A DNA stretch of 38,765 bases from a virus (taxonomy: Duplodnaviria > Heunggongvirae > Uroviricota > Caudoviricetes). The stretch lies in the IMG/VR virus record IMGVR_UViG_2654587569_000003; one strand, given 5' to 3'. The notes beneath the pieces were generated by a model that was not told the DNA's origin, searched no databases, and worked only from the letters and a program-made list of their open reading frames with translations. Each line of letters starts with the position of its first letter. Position 1 is the first letter of the stretch. The translations under genes were made by a program, and so were the position numbers. Below, piece by piece: positions 76-28,084 of this stretch.

Positions 76-3465
<3,390 letters not shown>

Positions 3466-4194: not shown

Positions 4195-4835
4195 TTGTCG
4201 GTATACCTCTCTCGTTTGCTCAGTTGTTCAGGAATATGGTGCAGCAGCTCGCCATCACCACAGTAAATGGCGGCATGATTCGGCACCGATGAACCAAAAC
4301 AGCACAGCAGCACATCGCCCGGTTGTGCTGATGACAACGGCACCTGATACAGCCCTGTGGCCTCCAGATTATCCAGATAGAGATTCTGACCGTGACGCCA
4401 CCAGTCATCCCCGCGATGAAAATCCGGCATCTCAATCCCCGCCAGATGATAAGCATCCCGGAACAGCGTGTAACAGTCCGTCACCCCGTGCTCAAAGCGC
4501 CGCCCGGTGAGATGCGGCACACAGCGGAACTTATGAATCGTCCCCCGGCAGACCAGCCACCACGGCAAATCACTCTGCACCTGCAGCCGCCGGTCGGCCT
4601 CACTCAGCCAGGGCAGACCACCGGGGTGGCTGTGGACCAGCGCCACAATCTCACCCTGCATTTCTGCCTGCAGCCAGTCTTCCGGCGACATACGGAAATA
4701 CGCCTCCGGCTCACCGGAGATATTCACGCAGGGGAAATATCTTTCCCCCTCCGGCGCTCTCACCACGAAGCCGCACGACTCCGCTGGCGCACATCGCCGG
4801 GCGTGCGCCAGAATCGCTGATTCTGTCTGTGTCAT
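4092..4835 (-). CDS. K: Tail tip assembly protein K (MPN/JAMM HSHPGG motif plus NlpC/P60-like C-terminal half)
   Basis: 247 aa ORF; lambda annotation is 199 aa and would start at internal Met (4691); start choice uncertain. Confidence 0.88.
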   Translation of the reverse strand: MTQTESAILAHARRCAPAESCGFVVRAPEGERYFPCVNISGEPEAYFRMSPEDWLQAEMQGEIVALVHSHPGGLPWLSEADRRLQVQSDLPWWLVCRGTIHKFRCVPHLTGRRFEHGVTDCYTLFRDAYHLAGIEMPDFHRGDDWWRHGQNLYLDNLEATGLYQVPLSSAQPGDVLLCCFGSSVPNHAAIYCGDGELLHHIPEQLSKRERYTDKWQRRTHSLWRHRAWRASAFTGICNDLAAASTFV

Positions 4836-4840
4836 GGGAT

Positions 4841-5539
4841 TTACTGCGAAAGTTTGTTAATGGAAAGGAAGCCGCCAAAGTTGCCGACGTTATTGCGGAA
4901 CTTACAACCGCTCAGGCATTTGCTGCATTTATCCTTCGTGATATCGGACGTTGGCTGGTCATATTCATCCGCGACCGCCGGACCGTGATAACCGCACTCA
5001 TCGCCGCGATAGGTCCAGGTGCAGGTGTTGGCCAGCATGATACGTCCCGGAAAAACAGCGCCGTCCGTTTCCGTCGGCGTGGACAGTACAAAAGAGGCAC
5101 TCACCGCGCTCAGTTCGCTGCACTGCTCAATGCGCCAGCGGCTGATCACCTCCTGCTCCGGATCGGCGTTACTGTTTCCGTTGACGAAGTTCACCGCATC
5201 CAGAAAACGGGCGTAAACCTTACGCCGGACCACCGTTCCGCCGACCAGACTCTGCAGATCTTCCGCCATCCCGGTGACCATACCGTACAGGTTAGAAACC
5301 GTCAGCGTGGGGCGCGTACTGGTGCCTTTGCCATTCAGTTCAAAACCACTCCCCTGAATGGGATACGGCTGATACTGTCGCCCCTGCCAGGTGACCGGCT
5401 CACCTTTTTCGTTCTGCTCATTACAGAAAAAATAACGTTCTCCACCGACCTCTGTCAGATCGATTTCCCAGAGCACCACGCTGGCCGACTGCTCCGCACG
5501 GGTGCATTCATTCAGTGTTTCCTGCCGGATATCCTGCAT
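4841..5539 (-). CDS. L: Tail tip protein L
   Basis: 232 aa, MQDIRQETLNECTRAEQSASVVLWEIDLTEVGGERYFFC matches recalled lambda L. Confidence 0.95.
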   Translation of the reverse strand: MQDIRQETLNECTRAEQSASVVLWEIDLTEVGGERYFFCNEQNEKGEPVTWQGRQYQPYPIQGSGFELNGKGTSTRPTLTVSNLYGMVTGMAEDLQSLVGGTVVRRKVYARFLDAVNFVNGNSNADPEQEVISRWRIEQCSELSAVSASFVLSTPTETDGAVFPGRIMLANTCTWTYRGDECGYHGPAVADEYDQPTSDITKDKCSKCLSGCKFRNNVGNFGGFLSINKLSQ

Positions 5540-5572
5540 CAGTTCACCACCTGTTCAAACTCTGCGCTGAAC

Positions 5573-5869
5573 TCAACACGCAACATACTGACCCGCAACG
5601 ACCATTTTGCGCAGGTCACCTTTATCTGCCTGCAACTCATAAGGCGGCGTCCACAGAAAGGACTTCCAGCCCCCGTGCTCAGCCAGAAACGACTCAAGCG
5701 CCGTGGCCTCCCAACGGGAAACAGAAAGCGTCACGCTGTACGTTTTCAGGTCAGCATTCAGCCCGGCAGGCGCACGCTGGGAATAGCCATCACCAAAGCG
5801 CACCTCCCTGACGGAAGGAGCCGATGTCACATCCATCCCGGGTTTCACTTTCCAGCGGAAGGTTTTCAT
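5573..5869 (-). CDS. M: Tail tip protein M, apparently frameshifted near 3' end (possible pseudogene or sequencing error)
   Basis: 98 aa ORF matches lambda M to ...WTPPYE then diverges; lambda-like C-terminus RQIKVTCAKWS.RVSMLRVEFSAEFEQVVN is in another frame and ends in TGATG overlap with L start at 5539. Confidence 0.8.
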   Translation of the reverse strand: MKTFRWKVKPGMDVTSAPSVREVRFGDGYSQRAPAGLNADLKTYSVTLSVSRWEATALESFLAEHGGWKSFLWTPPYELQADKGDLRKMVVAGQYVAC

Positions 5870-8427
5870 CGTCCACCTCCGGAGAACAGACCACCATCGC
5901 GCATCTGCCCGGTCACAACATCCATTGCCGCCTTACGGGCTACGTCATAAACAGCCTTCAGCGCCTGTGGCCCTATCTGCCCGTTCGTGCCGTCGTTGTT
6001 AATCACCACATGGTTATTCTGCTCAAACGTCCCGGACGCCTGCGACCGGCTGTCCACCATGCTGCCCGGTGTACCGACATAACCGCCGGTGGCATAGCCG
6101 CGCATCAGCCGGTAAAGATTCCCCACGCCAATCCGGCTGGTTGCCTCCTTCGTGAAGACAAACTCACCACGGTGAACAATCCCCGCTGGCTCATATTTGC
6201 CGCCGGTTCCCGTAAACCCTCCGGCCGCAAAATGGAATTTCGCCGCAGCGGCCTGAATGGCTGTACCGCCTGACGCGGATGCGCCGCCACCAACAGCCCC
6301 GCCAATGGCGCTGCCGATACTCCCGACAATCCCCACCATTGCCTGCTTAAGCAGAATTTCTGTCATCATGGACAGCACGGAACGGGTGAAGCTGCGCCAG
6401 TTCTGCTCACTGCCGGTCAGCATCGCCGCCATATTCTGTGCAATACCATCAAAGGTCTGCGTGGCAGCACTTTTAACCTGCGACATACTGTCCGTGGCGC
6501 TCTCTTCCCACTCACTCCAGCCGGACCTCAGGCCTGCCATCCAGCTCCCGCGAAGCTGGTCTTCAGCCGCCCAGGTCTTTTTCTGCTCTGACATGACGTT
6601 ATTCAGCGCCAGAGGATTATCGCCATACTGTTCCTTCAGGCGCTGTTCCGTGGCTTCCCGCGCTGCCTGCCGGTCAGTCAGCCCCCGGCTTTTCGCATCA
6701 ATGGCGGCCCGTTTTGCCCGTTGCTGCTGTGCGAATTTATCCGCCTGCTGCGCCAGCGCATTCAGACGCTCCTGATACGTGACCTTATCGCCAAGTACAG
6801 CCAGCTGGCGTTTGTACTCCAGCGTCTCATCTTTATGCGCCAGCAGGGATTTCTCCTGTGCGGACAGCTGGCGACGTTGTGCCGCCTCCTCCAGTACCGC
6901 GAACTGACTCTCCGCCTTCCACAAATCCCGGCGCTGCTGGCTGATTTTCTCATTCGCTCCGGCATGCTTCTCCAGCATCCGGAGTTCAGCCTGAAGCGTC
7001 AGCAGGGCAGCATGAGCACTGTCTTCCTGACGATCGCCCGCAGACACCTTCACGCCGGACTGTTTCGGCTTTTTCAGCGTCGCTTCATAATCCTTTTTCG
7101 CCGCCGCCATCAGCGTGTTGTAATCCGCCTGCAGGATTTTCCCGTCTTTCAGTGCCTTATTCAGTTCTTCCTGACGGGCGGTATATTTCTCCAGCGGCGT
7201 CTGCAGACGTTCGTAAGCCTTCTGCGCCTCTTCGGTATATTTCAGCCGTGACGCTTCGGTATCGCTCTGCTGCTGCGCATTTTTGTCCTGTTGACTCTGC
7301 TGCTCAGCCTTCTTTCGGGCGGCTTCAAGCGCAAGACGGGCCTTTTCACGATCATCCCAGTAACGCGCCCGCGCTTCATCGTTAACAAAATAATCATCCT
7401 TGCGCAGATTCCAGATATCGTCCGCTTTCTTAAACGCGGCCTCTGCCTTAATCAGCATCTCCTGCGCGGTATCAGGACGACCAATATCCAGCACCGCATC
7501 CCACATGGATTTGAAGGCCCGCGCTGTCCTGTCTGCCCAGGTCTCCAGCGTGCCCATGTTCTCTTTCAGGCGGCGGGTCTGGTCATCAAACCCTTTCGTC
7601 GCGGCCTCGTTCGCCGCCTGCAATGCCCCGGCTTCATCGCCGGAACGCTGCAACTGAGCAACATACGCAATCTGCTCCGCCGTCACGTTATGGAACTGGC
7701 GCGCCATCGCTGTCAGCCCCGACGTCGGGTCAGTGGTCAGCTTCCCGAAGGCTTCAGCGACCTTGTCCACCTCCACGCCGGATGCAGAGGAGAAACGCGC
7801 CACACTCTGGCTGATGGACGCAATCTGAGCCTCACCGCTTACCCCCGCCTTAACCAGTGCGCTGAGTGACTCGCTGGTCTGGTTAAACGTCAGCCCTGCC
7901 GCCAGCCCGGCTCTGGACAGGACCAGCATACGATCTGCCGTCAGACCCGACTGATTGCCGGAAAGGACCAGCGTTTTGTTGAAATCGGACAGGGTTGAGT
8001 TGCCCTGATACCAGGCATACGCCAGCGCACCGGTCGCCACCGCCAGCGAGGTGGCCCCCACCATCGGCAGGGTGATCGCACCGGCAAGCCCCCTGAACAT
8101 GGGGATAATCCCGCCGAAGGAGTCCTTCACCTGACCACCCTGTTGCAGCAGGATCAGCCACGGACTTTGCCCGCCTGCAAGCTGCGTGACCACGTCAGTG
8201 AACTGCGCAGGCAGCATACGCATGGCAGCTTTATACTGCCCGACGGAAATCCCCGCTTTCTGTGCAGCCAGCGCCTGCCGGCTCAGCGACTGTTCAACGA
8301 CTGCCGCTGTTTTTTTCGCATCACTTTCCGTACCGGAAAAATGACGCCTGACTCTGGCCATCTGCTCGTCAAATCTGGCCGCATCCAGACTTAAATCAAC
8401 GACCAGATCGCCTACCGGTTCAGCCAT
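5866..8427 (-). CDS. H: Tail tape measure protein H
   Basis: 853 aa, MAEPVGDLVVDLSLDAARFDEQMARV matches recalled lambda H; same length. Confidence 0.95.
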   Translation of the reverse strand: MAEPVGDLVVDLSLDAARFDEQMARVRRHFSGTESDAKKTAAVVEQSLSRQALAAQKAGISVGQYKAAMRMLPAQFTDVVTQLAGGQSPWLILLQQGGQVKDSFGGIIPMFRGLAGAITLPMVGATSLAVATGALAYAWYQGNSTLSDFNKTLVLSGNQSGLTADRMLVLSRAGLAAGLTFNQTSESLSALVKAGVSGEAQIASISQSVARFSSASGVEVDKVAEAFGKLTTDPTSGLTAMARQFHNVTAEQIAYVAQLQRSGDEAGALQAANEAATKGFDDQTRRLKENMGTLETWADRTARAFKSMWDAVLDIGRPDTAQEMLIKAEAAFKKADDIWNLRKDDYFVNDEARARYWDDREKARLALEAARKKAEQQSQQDKNAQQQSDTEASRLKYTEEAQKAYERLQTPLEKYTARQEELNKALKDGKILQADYNTLMAAAKKDYEATLKKPKQSGVKVSAGDRQEDSAHAALLTLQAELRMLEKHAGANEKISQQRRDLWKAESQFAVLEEAAQRRQLSAQEKSLLAHKDETLEYKRQLAVLGDKVTYQERLNALAQQADKFAQQQRAKRAAIDAKSRGLTDRQAAREATEQRLKEQYGDNPLALNNVMSEQKKTWAAEDQLRGSWMAGLRSGWSEWEESATDSMSQVKSAATQTFDGIAQNMAAMLTGSEQNWRSFTRSVLSMMTEILLKQAMVGIVGSIGSAIGGAVGGGASASGGTAIQAAAAKFHFAAGGFTGTGGKYEPAGIVHRGEFVFTKEATSRIGVGNLYRLMRGYATGGYVGTPGSMVDSRSQASGTFEQNNHVVINNDGTNGQIGPQALKAVYDVARKAAMDVVTGQMRDGGLFSGGGR

Positions 8428-8854
8428 ACCGGACTCCTCCTGCGATCCCTTCTGATACTGTCATCAGCATTACGTCATCCTCCGTCATGTCCGCCACATC
8501 CGGGGAAACGGGGATAACTTCATTCCCGTCCGGACCAAAACGAACGCCTCCGGCAAGCCCTGCCGCTTTCTGCATCAGCACATCATCTTCAGGCTCTTCG
8601 TCAGCCTCACGCCGGTTCAGCAGACTGAAATCCAGCGGATGCATATCCGGATCGCTGAAAAACAGGCTGAGCACGGTGTACGTCAGCCCGGAAAAGTGCA
8701 TATCCAGCAGAACATCATGAAAATAATGGGTACTGTAAAAGCGGTGCCAGTCGGCATACTCCGTGGATGACATCCCGGCAAGCATGGCACGCCAGTCGGG
8801 TCGCCCCATCTCACGCGCCAGTTTCAGGGCAAAACTCAGCTCACCGTCGAACAC
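8420..8854 (-). CDS. T: T segment of G-T tail assembly chaperone (expressed by -1 frameshift from G)
   Basis: ORF in -1 frame relative to G begins at the slippery site; lambda G-T architecture. Confidence 0.85.
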   Translation of the reverse strand: MFDGELSFALKLAREMGRPDWRAMLAGMSSTEYADWHRFYSTHYFHDVLLDMHFSGLTYTVLSLFFSDPDMHPLDFSLLNRREADEEPEDDVLMQKAAGLAGGVRFGPDGNEVIPVSPDVADMTEDDVMLMTVSEGIAGGVRYG

Positions 8855-9258
8855 TTTCCCGCAGAAACAGGCTCTGCAGGCCCGGCGTCCTCTGCCTGTT
8901 CAGGGGCATCATTCACCACAAACTCATACATACCAGACAGCCGGTACACCACGTTTTCAGCATGAGAAATTGCCTCCGCGGGCCAGGTGGTAAGCACTTC
9001 CTGCTCAATCTGTTTAACGGCTTCATTCATGGACGGCATCTGCGTCTTCTGCGGATGGTTATGCCACAGGGACATCGCCACCACAAAAGCGCCGGTTCTG
9101 ATGGCGTCTTCCACAGTAAACTTCCGGTTGCTGTCTGACTCCGCCTGTTCTGCCTGCCGTTTCATCAGGGCGAGATGCTCAATACGCTGCAGGGCTGACA
9201 GTTCAGAAAGCGTGACGGTCACACCGTTATGTTCAAATGATTCGGTTTTCAGGAACAT
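8836..9258 (-). CDS. G: Tail assembly chaperone G
   Basis: 140 aa, MFLKTESFEHNGVTVTLSELSALQRIEHLALMKRQAEQAESD matches recalled lambda G. Confidence 0.93.
   Translation of the reverse strand: MFLKTESFEHNGVTVTLSELSALQRIEHLALMKRQAEQAESDSNRKFTVEDAIRTGAFVVAMSLWHNHPQKTQMPSMNEAVKQIEQEVLTTWPAEAISHAENVVYRLSGMYEFVVNDAPEQAEDAGPAEPVSAGKCSTVS
8854..8860 (-). other. Programmed -1 ribosomal frameshift slippery heptamer G GGA AAG
   Basis: Plus strand CTTTCCC at 8854..8860; in G zero frame codons GGA AAG (..SAGKCSTVS stop) 5 codons before G stop. Confidence 0.85.
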
Positions 9259-22258: not shown

Positions 22259-24109
22259 TTATGCTGCCGGTGCATTTATCTCCAGCACCAGACTTTCTAT
22301 CTCAACGCCATACGCTGCATTTTTTGTAACATCCGTCAGCGTCAGCGCATTCAGTCCCAGTGTCAGACTGTCTTTTATAACCTGGAATGCCGGGCCAGCC
22401 ACTCCATTCAGTTTCGGAGTAACCGTGGCACTGCCGGCGGTGAACACCAGCTCCAGCGTCTGCCAGTCGTTACCGTAATCGCCGAACTCCCCCAGCTTCG
22501 TGTTTCCGGCTTTCCTGTGATGCATCAGATTCACTCTGCCGTCAGTGGTCTGAGTGAAGTAAGACATCAGGAACGGATTACCAGTACCCGTCATCGCCAC
22601 ATCATCAGGAACGGGAGCGTCCGTATACAGATAAATCCCCAGCCCGAACTGATTGTTGGTCAGTGCGCCTGAGAGGCGGAACTTACAGGTCAGTCTGCCG
22701 CCCTGTGTCAGCAGGGTAATTGCGTCATCCACCGGATGCATCAGGGACCAGGTTTTATTGCTCTGCTTGGTGATCTTAAATACACCATCTGACAACTGAA
22801 TTCCGCCATTCTTAATGCTCCAGCCCTGCGCAGCAGCATCTCCGGCTGTCGGCAACAGGGAGATTGTGCGTACGGATGCATCTTCAGACGGCCCCGATGG
22901 CGTGTCGCCGCCGGGCGAGGGTTTGATTTCCGGTGCCTTACCACTAATGAAGGCTAAGGTGCGACCGGCTACGTTCAGAATAGCAGTTGCCATACGATCG
23001 GGAATAATGCCACGACGCGCCCATGAGCTGAAATGCGTCGGGCGATTTGATGATACCCAGTTTTTGTTCGTTCGGGATGCCGAACCGTAATAACCAGACC
23101 CGGCAATATCAGGATCTTCTGACGGGTTGTTTGTCGGTGTATTAACTCCGCTACCATCGGTCATAAAGGGAACAAAATAAATCTGCTGGGATTCTTTACC
23201 TTTATATGCACCATATACCACTTCATATTGCGTACCGTGTTCTTGTTTCCACGCGTATGTCGTGTCGCCACAAATCCAGGGGACTGATGCCGGACTTCCA
23301 CCGTGACACTGCGCCGCCAGCCCGGCAAAGTCAGCACGGAACTGCTGTACCATTGCAAGAAATGCTGCTGGCTGCTGGGCGTAACTGGCATTCGTCATAT
23401 CGAATTCCCCCTGCATCCAGCATATCGCCAGCAAAACGTTTTTCGGGTTTTTCTGCAATGCTGCCTTCGTGCGGAAAAGCAGATCCTGATATAACGGCTT
23501 ACCCACTCCCCAGCGAGCCGAATCCTGACTGGCCCCCGTGGACTCGCTGAATGTCCCCTCCGTGCCCTGGGTGAATGCCGAACCACCACGACAGCATGGT
23601 ACCAGCAGGATCCCCGCATTATTAGGGATATACGGAAGCAGTTTTTTGGCAATATGTAAGCCCTGTCCGACACAGCCGTACTGCCCTTTGCTCAGGTCAG
23701 CCCGGGGATGGTTAATCGTACTCATATCCTGAACATCATGCAGACAATGGTCAGCAGGAATGATGTCGTTAAATACGCATACTTCACCACCGGGAGTCAC
23801 TGTGTTACGACGGGCCAGTTGCTTAATGCGCGGATGGGGCGCATCGTATGAATCCGGAAGCGGAAGCCCTTCACCGTAAGCCATGGCATTGGATTGCCCG
23901 GCCAGTACGATGACGTAGTACCACTCTGGCTCAGTTGCACCACTGACGACCACATCACCTTCTGCTGCAATCGCCTGCATCAGGGTATAAGGGGTTATGG
24001 CCACCGGACTACCAAACGGCTGCCAGCCCTCTTTCAGTTTATGTGTCAGCTTTTCCGCAAGATCTGACGGCGACGCCGCCCTGACAACATCATAGTGTTT
24101 AAATGCCAT
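22259..24109 (-). CDS. NanS-p-like sialate O-acetylesterase (N-terminal DUF1737-like region plus SGNH/SASA esterase)
   Basis: MAFKHYDVVRAASPSDLAEKLTHKLKEGWQPFGSP..VIVLAGQSNAMAYGEG; position between stx slot and lysis genes as in Stx prophages; start at second Met with GGTGGA SD. Confidence 0.8.
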   Translation of the reverse strand: MAFKHYDVVRAASPSDLAEKLTHKLKEGWQPFGSPVAITPYTLMQAIAAEGDVVVSGATEPEWYYVIVLAGQSNAMAYGEGLPLPDSYDAPHPRIKQLARRNTVTPGGEVCVFNDIIPADHCLHDVQDMSTINHPRADLSKGQYGCVGQGLHIAKKLLPYIPNNAGILLVPCCRGGSAFTQGTEGTFSESTGASQDSARWGVGKPLYQDLLFRTKAALQKNPKNVLLAICWMQGEFDMTNASYAQQPAAFLAMVQQFRADFAGLAAQCHGGSPASVPWICGDTTYAWKQEHGTQYEVVYGAYKGKESQQIYFVPFMTDGSGVNTPTNNPSEDPDIAGSGYYGSASRTNKNWVSSNRPTHFSSWARRGIIPDRMATAILNVAGRTLAFISGKAPEIKPSPGGDTPSGPSEDASVRTISLLPTAGDAAAQGWSIKNGGIQLSDGVFKITKQSNKTWSLMHPVDDAITLLTQGGRLTCKFRLSGALTNNQFGLGIYLYTDAPVPDDVAMTGTGNPFLMSYFTQTTDGRVNLMHHRKAGNTKLGEFGDYGNDWQTLELVFTAGSATVTPKLNGVAGPAFQVIKDSLTLGLNALTLTDVTKNAAYGVEIESLVLEINAPAA

Positions 24110-24369
24110 GGTTCTTTCCACCATCTGAAAAATAATTCTTTAAAATACCTGACATGTAATACAGAAAAAACACAAAACCATACCTTAAATAAAAACCTCA
24201 TCATCAAGCAGATATGCATGGATAAACTACAAGACGAGATATAAACCACCCTGCATTTAAATAAACAATAAACAACATCAGAAAAATAATTCTGCTCTAT
24301 GGTTTACAATCAAAAATATCATTTATACTTTTCAGAACATCACCAGCAAGGCATAAACAAGGAAACTAA

Positions 24370-24705
24370 ATGAAGTGGATTGTGATTGATACAGTTATCC
24401 AGCCATCATGCGGAATATCTTTTTCAGTCATATGGAGTAAAATAAAATTAATAATCTGGTATCAATCGGATGCTTTCTTACCTCCTGAAAGTATATTTAC
24501 ACTGACTCACACAGGTATCATGCTCAATAACAAAGTGCTACCTGTAACCATTTACAACGTAGTACCATTCAATAAAACATTCTGGAATTTAATCAAAAAC
24601 AGCCAGGAATGCCCTACAAATACAGATAACGTATTGAATGAATGCTTTAATAACCGTTGCACTCTGCAAATATGTCCTTATGGACTAAAACAACAAAGTC
24701 CATAA
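24370..24705 (+). CDS. Hypothetical Cys-containing protein (111 aa) in AT-rich cargo segment
   Basis: AAGGA SD 9 nt upstream; TTTACA-17-TACTTT promoter-like hexamers at 24303..24331; hairpin downstream; no recognisable family. Confidence 0.45.
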
Positions 24706-24740
24706 GGAGTTTACTCACATCTGACAAAATCAATATAAAC

Positions 24741-24760
24741 AGCCCCTCCGGAGAGGGGCT
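24741..24760. terminator. Perfect hairpin AGCCCCTC-CGGA-GAGGGGCT between convergent cargo ORFs
   Basis: 8-bp stem read directly; flanking U-tracts weak in both orientations. Confidence 0.4.
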
Positions 24761-25137
24761 GGAGAGTGGCGCTATGTGCCATTGCATGGTGCCGGGTGCC
24801 TCCCGGTGAATTCAGTACCAGCACCTGAATCCGCGATTATCCCATATACCTACTCGCTGATTGCCCCTCCGCACAGGTGGATTCACCATGCCAGTTTCTT
24901 TTAACAAACTCCCCGCAAACCAGACAACAGTCAACCGCCTGAATTGTGAAGTATTTAAAAATTTCTCCGGCTAACAGTCTGGCGTTTTCTTTTTCAGCAA
25001 CGGGAAAGCAACAACCACCACACCCGCCACCAGTACACAGTCAGCCAGCACTGACATTATCCGGCTGCTGCAATGCCATTCACAAAAACAGTAAGCAATC
25101 ACTTTTTACCGTAACAGGTGATAATCCAGATATGTAT

Positions 25138-25464
25138 CTACCCCAGATGAGTAATCCGAAGTTCATCCATACCACAGGTCCTGGCTATTCTGTTGTACTC
25201 CTGAACAAGAGCAAATAATTCTGAATTAGCAACCATGAACTCATCGCAAACCCTCTGTATAGCATCACTATTCAGAAGAATAACGTCTCTTCCCGAAAGA
25301 CGATCAGGAGTACAGAACAAAACTGTCAAACGGCTGAAGGCCTTTGCTCGTGCTGCATTGACTATATCAATACGCTGCCTAAGGATGAAACACCCCGACG
25401 CCTCATCAATATTCACTCTACCCACACCATATGAATGATAAATATTTAATACTGAAAAAACCAT
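25138..25464 (-). CDS. Hypothetical protein (about 108 aa from internal Met) in cargo segment
   Basis: ORF track entry; no convincing SD; AT-rich; no recognisable motif. Confidence 0.3.
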   Translation of the reverse strand: MVFSVLNIYHSYGVGRVNIDEASGCFILRQRIDIVNAARAKAFSRLTVLFCTPDRLSGRDVILLNSDAIQRVCDEFMVANSELFALVQEYNRIARTCGMDELRITHLG

Positions 25465-25601
25465 TAGACCGTATAACAAACACTCAATCAATACTTAACA
25501 GAACTTTTATTTTTGACAAACATATAATATTTTCAACAATATACTGAGCCAGGTATATTCCAGTATAAGGCTCTGCCGGAAGAAATCTGGAAGAATGAAT
25601 A

Positions 25602-25678
25602 TGGCGCGTTGTACTGGATTCGAACCAGTGACCGATTGCTTAGAAGGCAATTGCTCTGTCCGGCTGAGCTAACAACGC
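25602..25678 (-). tRNA. tRNA-Arg (anticodon UCU)
   Basis: Canonical cloverleaf by hand: acceptor GCGTTGT/ACAACGC, anticodon loop CTTCTAA, T-loop TTCGAAT, CCA encoded. Confidence 0.85.
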
Positions 25679-25691
25679 ATAATGCAGATAA

Positions 25692-25768
25692 TGGATTGCC
25701 ATCGGGGACCCGGGCCCCACACAGCCAGTTTCGAAAGCTGACGCTCTCTGCCGATGAGCTAATGGCGG
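25692..25768 (-). tRNA. Degenerate tRNA-like sequence (possible tRNA-Arg UCG relic)
   Basis: Good D-arm and anticodon arm (loop TTTCGAA) but acceptor has 2 terminal mismatches and T-loop is CCCGGGT. Confidence 0.35.
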
Positions 25769-25775
25769 TATGTGA

Positions 25776-25851
25776 TGGTGGCCCTTGCTGGATTTGAACC
25801 AGCGACCTGGCGATTATGAGTCGCTCGCTCTCACCACTGAGCTAAAGGGCC
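25776..25851 (-). tRNA. tRNA with CAU anticodon, Ile2 (ileX-like) type
   Basis: Acceptor GGCCCTT/AAGGGCC, anticodon loop CTCATAA, T-loop TTCAAAT, CCA encoded; resembles recalled ileX. Confidence 0.85.
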
Positions 25852-25900
25852 GGTAGCAGAATAATAATGGTGCGTAATTAATTCTGCAATCCCATCCGTT

Positions 25901-26950
25901 TCAAACGATTAAATCCTGAACTTCCCTGACTGTCTGTTCAAAACGTCCTGTCTCCAGCTCAACACCAATCGCACAACGCCCCAGTGCCATCGCCGCTTTT
26001 ACCGTTGAACCTGAACCCATAAAAAAATCTGCAACCAGGTCTCCCGGACGACTGCTCGCGTTGATTATCTGCTGCAGCATTTCTGCCGGTTTTTCGCACG
26101 GATGTTTCCCTAGATAGTACTGCACCGGTTTATGCGTCCAGACATCGGTGTACGGAACCTGCGCCGTCACACCGAAATACCGCCGCAAATTTTTATATTC
26201 ACTCAGCAGTTCCGTATACTGCCGGTTCAGCTCACTGTATGTGCTGACCAGCTGGTGGTGTGGCTTTTCCAGTTCCCCGCGCTGATGTTTTTCTGCCGCA
26301 ACACGCGCAAACAACGCCTGCAATTTGTTGTAATTACCCTCGTTCGGTAACTGCCACTGACTGGTACCAAACCAGTGCGAAGCCATGTTTTTCTTTCCGG
26401 TGGCTTCCGCTATCTGTTTTGACGTTATTCCCAGTGATTTACGCGCATCACGAAAGTAAGAAATCAGCGGGGCCATGACGTGCTGTTTTAGCTCGCGCCC
26501 CTGTGCCACATAGCCATCATCTTTCGGGCGATACGGTCCCTGATAATGTTCTGCAAACAGAATGCGCTCTGTTGCCGGAAAATACGCCCGCAGACTTTCC
26601 TTATTGCACCCGTTCCAGCGTCCGGACGGCTTCGCCCAGATAATGTGGTTCAGCACATTAAAGCGCTCACGCATCATGATTTCGGTGTCAGATGCCAGGC
26701 GATGACCACAGAACAGGTAAAGACTTCCGGCAGGCTTCAGTACCCGCCAGAACTGCGCCAGACACTGGTCCAGCCATTTCAGGTAATCATCGTCGCCCTC
26801 CCACTGGTTATCCCAGCCCTCGGGCTTCACTTTAAAGTATGGCGGGTCTGTGACTATCAGATCGACAGAGTTTTCCGGTAAGGTCTGGATAAATTCCAGG
26901 CAATCAGCGTTGATTAACTCACAACTGGATATTTTTACAGTATTAATCAT
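25901..26950 (-). CDS. Orphan DNA methyltransferase, beta-class N6A/N4C (motif IV DPPY N-terminal, motif I FxGxG C-terminal)
   Basis: 349 aa; LIVTDPPYF and DFFMGSGST motifs in circularly permuted order. Confidence 0.8.
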   Translation of the reverse strand: MINTVKISSCELINADCLEFIQTLPENSVDLIVTDPPYFKVKPEGWDNQWEGDDDYLKWLDQCLAQFWRVLKPAGSLYLFCGHRLASDTEIMMRERFNVLNHIIWAKPSGRWNGCNKESLRAYFPATERILFAEHYQGPYRPKDDGYVAQGRELKQHVMAPLISYFRDARKSLGITSKQIAEATGKKNMASHWFGTSQWQLPNEGNYNKLQALFARVAAEKHQRGELEKPHHQLVSTYSELNRQYTELLSEYKNLRRYFGVTAQVPYTDVWTHKPVQYYLGKHPCEKPAEMLQQIINASSRPGDLVADFFMGSGSTVKAAMALGRCAIGVELETGRFEQTVREVQDLIV

Positions 26951-27100
26951 AGATCAATAAGCACTTCTCTGATAGGCTCATACCGCTTTTGCGCAAAGCA
27001 GATGGGCCTGAGGTTTGCTTGTGACCCCAACGCATGAGCAGATGGCTGGCAGGTGCCGCTAACACCCACCAGCCGCCCATTACCACAAATTAAAAAGCCT

Positions 27101-27298
27101 TCACTGCGGAAGGCGTCTGTAACAACCGAACTGATAATCTGCCAGACCCGCCATAACAAGCTGAGTCAGTATTAACTGGCAGCGTTCGCGTGAAAGGTAA
27201 GTATTCTGCGCAATTTCCCCGACGGTCGCCGGTTCGGTGACGCTTAATTCATTAAACACCACTCTGGCGGTTTCGGTCATATCCTGCTGTTTTAGCAT
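27101..27298 (-). CDS. Small putative DNA-binding protein (65 aa from internal Met)
   Basis: MLKQQDMTETARVVFNELSVTEPATVGEIAQNTYLSRERCQLILTQL; HTH-like; lies after terminator and before methylase. Confidence 0.4.
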   Translation of the reverse strand: MLKQQDMTETARVVFNELSVTEPATVGEIAQNTYLSRERCQLILTQLVMAGLADYQFGCYRRLPQ

Positions 27299-27419
27299 GC
27301 TTTTTTCCCTTTTCCGGTTAACGTGACATACCAATACCTCTTGTCGAAAAAGCCAGCAAGCTGAAAGACCAGTATTCACAACTACCAGCGCGTTTAATGT
27401 TCTGTGCCGTTTTTCAGAC

Positions 27420-27446
27420 ATAAAAAAACCCGCATAAAGCGGGTTC
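27420..27446 (-). terminator. Intrinsic terminator about 100 nt downstream of Q-like gene
   Basis: Minus strand ACCCGC-TTTAT-GCGGGT followed by TTTTTTTA. Confidence 0.7.
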
Positions 27447-27529
27447 TTTCAGGTGTCCATGTCTGCTATTCGCCTCGCGGTATAGCTTTGCGAAGCGTAG
27501 CTGGATTGAAACAGTTTATGCGTAAAAAA

Positions 27530-28084
27530 TCAAGACATTTTTTGAGCAAACGATTCTCGCATAGGGATGTATAGCGCATATTCAGCAACAGCCAACCAAT
27601 TAGCAATTCGCTTTTCGCATGTACTAAAACACCATTCCGGGTGCACCTCATTCAACAATTCAGCCATTTTGCGTTTACTCATCCCCCGCCCTTCGTACCT
27701 TTGCCGCAGGATATCAATCAATCCAGGATAACGTGCAAGCGCTTTACTTATCACCCCATCAATGCGTAACGCCTCTGCATCAGTACAGTGAGACAACCAG
27801 CTCTTCTGTCTGCCAGCGATCATCTCTCGCAAGAATGCTTCCAGCTCTGGTTTATCAATCCCTGACTCCCTGATTCTACGCAGGGCTTCATTGATTGCGG
27901 TTTTTGTCAGTTTTTTGGATGCCAGCAACTGATTGAACATATTTCCTGGTTTGCCACCACCTATATACGACCAACGCCCCCACATCCGTAATTTCCCCTG
28001 GATCCAGACGGCTTCCAGCGTTTTTAGACGTAAATGCTCGCCGCTTTTGCCTGTAATTTCCGGGTATATCATATTTACGATCAC
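27530..28084 (-). CDS. Putative late-gene antiterminator Q-like protein (positional call)
   Basis: 184 aa; start overlaps rusA stop by 4 nt; followed by strong terminator; sequence family not recognised by me. Confidence 0.45.
   Translation of the reverse strand: MIVNMIYPEITGKSGEHLRLKTLEAVWIQGKLRMWGRWSYIGGGKPGNMFNQLLASKKLTKTAINEALRRIRESGIDKPELEAFLREMIAGRQKSWLSHCTDAEALRIDGVISKALARYPGLIDILRQRYEGRGMSKRKMAELLNEVHPEWCFSTCEKRIANWLAVAEYALYIPMRESFAQKMS

Follow-up and report, generated by a model that had tools for sequence, protein, structure and literature searches.

In the tail module of a lambdoid prophage of Escherichia coli, the gene for tail protein M is divided between two reading frames, and the question raised by this locus is whether the break exists in the bacterial DNA or only in the deposited sequence. 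The first-pass annotation had named the same two options, a defective prophage or an assembly error. Both were sound, and the evidence described below weighs towards a probable assembly or consensus artefact. From comparisons of sequence, we put at roughly 0.6 the probability that the frameshift is an artefact, made when two co-resident prophage alleles were collapsed or blended into one consensus, and is likely absent from the bacterial DNA.

The prophage and the frame break in M

The window (the whole stretch of DNA that was analysed, 38,765 bp) is the complete contig JHTI01000035.1 of the draft E. coli assembly GCA_001266405.1, with zero ambiguous bases across its 38.8 kb. A lambdoid prophage on the minus strand fills it. 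The head and tail module is lambda-type (Nu1/A, portal, C, D, E, FI, FII, Z, U, V, G/T, H, M, L, K, I and J), and its genes have canonical lengths throughout, M excepted. The gene order H-M-L-K-I-J is present, with overlapping H/M (ATGA at 5869-5866) and M/L (TGATG at 5541-5537) junctions. The features around M are as follows:

4841..5539, minus strand: tail tip gene L, 232 aa, intact (ORF and Pfam)
5539..5631, minus strand: codons 80-109 and stop of M, intact, in the +1 frame (ORFs; PF05939 positions 63-108)
5573..5869, minus strand: M as called, 98 aa; an ATG ORF in which 78 native codons are followed by 20 out of frame and then a premature stop
5636..5869, minus strand: codons 1-78 of M, native frame, as far as ...WTPPYE (aligned with lambda gpM 8IYK_M and with relatives)
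5866..8427, minus strand: tape measure gene H, 853 aa, intact, its stop overlapping the M start (ATGA) (ORF; Pfam TMP_2 and Tape_meas_lam_C)

Residues 1-78 of the 98-aa ORF (MKTF...FLWTPPYE) are gpM-like, and the final 20 (LQADKGDLRKMVVAGQYVAC) are out of frame. The stop codon lies at 5575..5573. The open reading frames thus bear out the description in the first-pass annotation of an ORF that is lambda M-like as far as ...WTPPYE, then diverges and terminates 33 nt short of the L start at 5539. Its proposal of a lambda-like C-terminus in another frame, with the native TGATG overlap, is likewise upheld by the ORFs and by PF05939. This second frame, over 5631..5539, reads RQIKVTCAKWSLRVSMLRVEFSAEFEQVVN and ends in a TGA that shares its A with the ATG of L.

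Against the Pfam profile PF05939, the 98-aa ORF spans positions 1-80 of 108 and the second-frame ORF positions 63-108. After a one-base repair, M covers positions 1-108 with 130.7 bits; only the repaired M spans the whole profile, and no single ORF as deposited does so. An alignment to lambda M, suggested with the first-pass annotation as a check, matched repaired M over residues 1-109 to lambda gpM (PDB 8IYK chain M, E = 9.3e-64). The frame break is not a chance pattern, because each half of M shares over 90% identity with a well-known gene.

Lambda gpM is a structural protein, the distal tail protein, of which six copies form a hexameric ring between the tail tube and the tip that anchors the gpL/gpJ tip to the tube in the lambda cryo-EM structure; all 109 residues are ordered in the virion, in a beta-sandwich fold (PMC10721106). 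The window M resembles lambda gpM (PF05939, Phage_min_tail; 8IYK chain M) in its position between H and L and in its overlapping start and stop signals. It differs in that the frame breaks after residue 78, leaving a 98-aa product that lacks the C-terminal 30-31 residues and has 20 unrelated residues instead. A naturally short M in related functional phages, an outcome that the first-pass annotation had allowed for, was found in 0 of 85 phage records.

To locate the break, the window was aligned with phage 21, CFT073, strain Bongo and eleven further relatives. A single uncompensated extra base falls at 5637 when the window is compared with 21-type alleles, or at 5631 when compared with lambda-type alleles. 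Compared with six references, this is the sole uncompensated indel across 9.2 kb of tail genes. The first-pass annotation had placed a single extra nucleotide near 5628..5636, and its location holds to within one base. Its simplicity does not, as the block concerned (AGTTGCA) is not a normal allele with one base added but differs by an insertion and a substitution from every natural 6-nt allele.

Several other features describe the prophage more generally. The canonical lambda G/GT arrangement is present at 8420-9258 (minus strand), with G at 9258..8836 and a T ORF at 8854..8420 in the -1 frame. A GGGAAAG heptamer at the G/T junction (8854-8860) corresponds to the expected programmed -1 frameshift of the tail assembly chaperones. 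The late and early region is of the kind found in relatives of Stx phages, and also contains lysozyme, replication genes and a CI-like repressor. Its late part comprises:

22259-28084, minus strand: Stx-phage-type late region (gene architecture)
28084..27530, minus strand: Q-like antiterminator (DUF1133)
26950..25901, minus strand: DNA methylase
25776-25851, minus strand: tRNA-Met(cat)
25602-25678, minus strand: tRNA-Arg(tct)
24124..22259, minus strand: nanS-p-like SASA esterase, separated from tRNA-Arg by a gap of about 1.4 kb

No stxA-sized ORF is present in this gap (24125-25600), and the window therefore looks like an stx-negative relative of the Stx phages.

A seven-nucleotide block between two allele families

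The lesion lies between two invariant motifs and can be described as follows:

5626..5641, minus strand: lesion TATG-AGTTGCA-GGCAG, a 7-nt block where natural alleles have 6 nt; extra base at 5637 or 5631, depending on the reference

The window reads TATGAGTTGCAGGCAG at this site, and the corresponding 6-nt versions are TATGAGTGGCGGCAG and TATGGTTACAGGCAG. Natural alleles were sampled by a gapped-pattern scan of IMG/VR and metagenome contigs, with TATG and GGCAG as bounds. In all 248 in-frame natural copies, exactly 6 nt separate the two motifs. AGTGGC accounts for 169 of them and GTTACA for 44; the others are GCTACC (16), ACTGGC (12), GCTACA (4), GCTGGC (2) and CCTGGC (1). AGTGGC, encoding YEWRQ, is the lambda-type allele and GTTACA, encoding YGYRQ, is the phage-21-type allele. 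In a 41-mer search of 5,426 finished E. coli genomes, the lambda type was found at 3,087 places and the 21 type at 877.

Alleles of the two families are equally long, and what sets them apart is a block of substituted codons (GAG TGG CGG versus GGT TAC AGG). MAFFT, however, renders this block as two compensating 1-nt gaps, TATGAGTGGC-GGCAG against TATG-GTTACAGGCAG, or in a shorter form TATGAGTGGC-GG against TATG-GTTACAGG. In this gapped alignment the window keeps both of the 'inserted' A's together with one mismatch column from each parent, and every base of AGTTGCA has its counterpart in one or other of the lambda-type and 21-type alleles. On the left, the window matches natural alleles exactly up to TATGAGT (lambda-type); on the right, exact matching resumes at CAGGCAG (21-type). 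Judged by its composition, the 7-nt block must derive from both parent alleles.

AGTTGCA is two changes, an insertion and a substitution, from any natural allele and is not derivable in one step. These would have to be two specific changes towards the other allele, and to have occurred repeatedly, so that random mutation is effectively excluded. The only in-frame sequences in which duplication of a single T would yield the observed hybrids are AGTGCA and AGTACA. Neither occurs in the 5,426 finished genomes, where the same 41-mer design detects the lambda-type and 21-type controls, and neither was found in IMG/VR or among the 248 sampled copies. A simple homopolymer slip or single insertion was therefore rejected, given the two changes from every natural allele and the absence of these precursors. 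Ordinary in-register recombination was also rejected as the source of the length change, because natural alleles are all of the same length: in-register homologous exchange between equal-length alleles preserves length, whereas a process acting on a gapped alignment can change it.

Other searches of the same kind were less informative. In IMG/VR, the in-register hybrids number 0 and 1 against 2 out-of-register ones, counts too few to discriminate; a GKTGGC-class allele exists there once. Six repaired versions of the window M were looked up exactly among 15 billion proteins and none was present, which indicates that the M mosaic of the window is unique and nothing more.

Carriers and close relatives

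The exact 98-aa M protein is on record solely on the window contig. Clustering at 90% identity groups it with six others, and the DNA was examined for five of these. One of them, JHSH01000045.1 (sister assembly GCA_001265885.1, of an accession series adjacent to that of the window), has the same AGTTGCA and only 8 substitutions in 3.5 kb relative to the window; this contig stops about 270 nt past the site, inside L. AGTTGCA also occurs in ALNX01000136.1, on a different M background, and on a lambda-like background in LYBJ01000089, a contig of 580 nt in its entirety. ALNX01000136.1 has at least 9 duplicated-base insertions in 5.3 kb, a pattern of homopolymer over-calling, and its fragmented K, I and J are thus not to be read as pseudogenes. 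Single-base insertions on this contig lie at 1990, 4120 and 5067-5149, five of them within 82 nt of J.

Contig AIGQ01000055 of strain DEC10B carries AGTTACA, which is exactly the lambda-type left half joined to the 21-type right half. A leave-one-out copying parse makes its M a clean two-parent chimera joined exactly at the site, and the two arms have different nearest relatives in finished genomes. The end of this contig lies 407 nt upstream of the M start. When 5-nt blocks were searched for, the reciprocal blend, GTGGC, came to light on one further contig (L131), with a 21-type left half, a lambda-type right half and both 'gaps' kept, for a net change of -1; its upstream background is 21-like. 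Overall, +1 and -1 hybrid forms at TATG-NNNNNN-GGCAG are present in at least six public draft contigs. At least four M backgrounds carry the hybrid (window and JHSH01000045, ALNX01000136, LYBJ01000089, and DEC10B with AGTTACA). Their flanks differ within about 35 nt, which indicates that the hybrid arose repeatedly and did not spread from one ancestor.

Genuine M pseudogenes do occur. The 90-kb contig CAJCSW010000019.1 has another M lesion at 3001-3285, an 11-nt deletion of CCTTATGAGTG at the same site, and on a chromosome-sized contig of 5.15 Mb (P0098) M is multiply frameshifted.

The hybrid carriers are draft contigs only, and each variant protein is found on a single contig. No exact copy of a 71-mer from the window was found at 4,718 places in finished genomes, all the matches listed being of 70 nt, and hybrids were absent at the approximately 4,700 M loci of the 5,426 finished genomes. 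For an allele this rare, its absence from about 4,700 finished copies is weak evidence. The hybrid was likewise found in 0 of 85 phage records, in none of the metagenome contigs searched, against at least 120 six-nt copies there, and in none of the GTDB representative genomes. None of the frameshifted M proteins has a Logan source; the intact M alleles each occur on 1,000 contigs or more, and a Logan source is recorded for several of the other intact M variants listed. A protein search with the junction and the out-of-frame tail returned 3 candidates and missed the query's own cluster, and is therefore uninformative about Logan or ENA. The Logan contig that encodes the identical K protein belongs to a different run and ends 73 nt upstream of K. 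A literature search on the sequencing platform or assembler for JHTI and JHSH, their GCA accessions or DEC10B found nothing.

The L protein of the window occurs with identical sequence on 58 contigs, and at 9 of 9 other listed places with identical L the adjoining M has 109 aa. These relatives form two groups, A with AGTGGC and B with GTTACA, which share the flanks of the window almost base for base (including a near-identical 3' end of H) and differ mainly within M. At 32 sites diagnostic of A or B, the window follows group B from 5980 to 5774 and, from 5756 on, mostly group A, with scattered B states. Outside the lesion site, it has one private substitution over the aligned 6076..5360. A further patch separates it from its sister contig:

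5825-5980, minus strand: A/B swap patch, where the window has the group-B (21-type) and JHSH01000045 the group-A (lambda-type) sequence

This patch of 155 nt holds 6 of the 8 differences between the window and JHSH01000045.1, and represents either a short gene conversion or the same two-allele mixture resolved differently.

Further upstream, the exact H protein of the window is recorded on the window contig only, its best match among 8,408 places in finished genomes being 98.2%; the stretch of H at 6300-7300 is one where the contig is distinctive. For 25 kb of the window contig, the best that any finished E. coli genome offers is 96.8% over 92%. The window phage is either an unusual mosaic or a partly blended consensus. 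When mosaicism was measured against a mixed panel, the window gave 31 segments versus 1-15 for controls, a striking difference that shrank under a leave-one-out control. With leave-one-out on M, the window has 10 segments against a median of 2, and 4 of 108 natural alleles have at least 10; about half of the window's 10 segments lie at the lesion site. The mosaicism of the window M outside the site is thus only moderately unusual and was not relied on.

The two M types can reside in one cell. Finished E. coli genomes have a median of 1 M copy and up to 5-6. E. coli E2865 (NZ_AP018808.1, finished) carries lambda-type and 21-type M in different prophages, at 646703 and 3047216, and the proposed precondition for blending therefore occurs naturally.

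Artefact or lesion, and what follows

In the reading that we prefer, the isolate would carry two lambdoid prophages with near-identical H-M-L regions, one with a lambda-type and the other with a 21-type M. Reads or sub-assemblies of both copies may have been piled together during consensus calling, polishing or error correction. If columns were then resolved one by one, with bases preferred over gaps, both 'insertions' would be kept and the two mismatch columns mixed, and the product would be TATGAGTTGCAGG, one base too long. Such a process on a gapped alignment would be deterministic, could give the same product in separate assemblies and would also explain the reciprocal -1 form. The hybrid composition of the block, the equal length of natural alleles, the distribution of the hybrid and the occurrence of either parent allele in relatives with the same flanks are all direct observations. 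The artefact is favoured by this hybrid structure, by recurrence in draft contigs, by the reciprocal -1 form, by the lack of a precursor and by the otherwise intact tail module. Other carriers, moreover, are in settings typical of repeat collapse: the 580-nt contig, the DEC10B site close to its contig end and the sister contig that stops soon after the site. Collapsed-repeat and consensus artefacts of multi-prophage E. coli drafts resemble this case in affecting a repeated region, in blending two alleles, in being confined to drafts and in often lying on short contigs or near their ends. The window contig differs in being long and clean, and its membership in this class is what we infer.

Some observations count against an artefact. 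To our knowledge, De Bruijn graph assemblers do not normally produce k-mers that no read contains. Apart from the break in M, the 38.8-kb contig is clean and has no further frameshift close by, and three independent assemblies resolve the two mismatch columns identically (T and G). JHSH01000045 has the same allele, as inheritance of a real mutation would give. The main rival, possible but less likely, is that the lesion is real: co-resident alleles would have recombined or undergone gene conversion, or two mutations would have followed one another, to give an out-of-register hybrid and a truncated M. The deposited sequence is, after all, frameshifted, and the same allele appears in a second assembly of a near-identical prophage; the site has no long homopolymer and so is not a classic base-calling error. 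The existence of genuine M pseudogenes (the 11-nt deletion and the multiply frameshifted copy) fits with this reading, as do the mosaic natural alleles, by which recombination in M is common, and the structural role of gpM, whose 109 ordered residues mean that loss would be inactivating (PMC10721106). However, in-register exchange between equal-length alleles cannot alter length. A real lesion would need two coordinated changes, each towards the other allele, which recurred on at least four backgrounds, and none was found in the finished genomes, phage isolates or metagenomes searched. On inheritance by related isolates the records weigh neither way: the window shares its lesion with JHSH01000045 only, the remaining carriers having different M backgrounds. 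Lesions of prophage decay tend to be passed on to clonal relatives and to occur together with others. The window M is like the frameshift pseudogenes of cryptic prophages in that an essential virion gene of a prophage is broken by a net 1-nt indel. Unlike them, it is the sole lesion in the tail module (9.2 kb), is a hybrid of two alleles rather than a random change, and its variants are singletons; had the lesion been inherited, clonal relatives sequenced in other projects should have it too.

A variant in which the hybrid is both real and recurrent seems unlikely. Here, in a cell with both allele types, a heteroduplex of lambda-type and 21-type strands across the 6-nt block would pair out of register, with two 1-nt bulges, and would be repaired to a reproducible +1 or -1 product. 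We consider it rather improbable, too, that a base-calling or homopolymer error (T to TT) was made on a rare but genuine in-register recombinant, AGTGCA (YECRQ), with AGTACA as the equivalent origin for DEC10B and an under-call of GTTGGC or GGTGGC for the -1 form. The length change of each hybrid can indeed be written as a change in a 2-base run; the ALNX contig is rich in such duplications, one of which turns CAGTGC into CAGTTGC in J, and a GKTGGC-class allele is present in IMG/VR. Yet AGTGCA and AGTACA were absent from every collection searched (IMG/VR, the 5,426 finished genomes and the 248 sampled copies), and 9.2 kb of the window contig has no other homopolymer-type indel. It is hardly credible that a +1 ribosomal frameshift is programmed here, or that M functions in a short or split form, despite the two intact halves and the native L overlap kept by the downstream one. 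M is single-frame in 85 phage records, 248 copies and the 3,964 lambda-type and 21-type places in finished genomes, and by direct reading UAU GAG UUG CAG GCA shows neither a known +1 motif nor an in-frame stop or rare codon. Only singleton draft contigs have the two-frame layout, and the missing segment is part of the folded beta-sandwich (PMC10721106). The lambda G/GT programmed -1 frameshift is comparable in belonging to the same tail gene cluster and in using two reading frames; it is conserved and has a slippery heptamer, whereas the layout of M is neither conserved nor provided with a shift signal. Both a programmed frameshift and a natural short M were rejected for lack of conservation across the 85 phage records and 248 copies.

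If the lesion were real, loss of the last 30-31 residues of gpM should abolish its fold, so that the distal-tail ring could not form. The prophage would then be expected to be inducible, to replicate, lyse its host and package heads, but to release no infectious tailed particles. It would be one more tail-defective prophage, of small biological significance, and the break in M is ordinary whether it is an artefact or a real lesion. If the heteroduplex explanation were true, prophages that recombine within one cell would lose the distal tail protein again and again, always through the same predictable site, which would amount to an incompatibility between M allele families at the nucleotide level.

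Similar blocks of compensating +1/-1 gaps among natural alleles occur at 4336-4342 in K and at 1879-1885 and 1402-1405 in J, where the window is in frame. These are candidate sites for blended-consensus frameshifts in other draft assemblies. Short substitution blocks between allele families can give rise to compensating gaps in this way, and a blended consensus at such a block would mimic a clean frameshift. Calls of pseudogenes or of 'cryptic prophages' made from draft contigs at such blocks should therefore be verified against the reads before they are believed. For the lambdoid prophages of E. coli, the M site TATG-NNNNNN-GGCAG is a documented and recurring trap for pseudogene calling in multi-prophage drafts.
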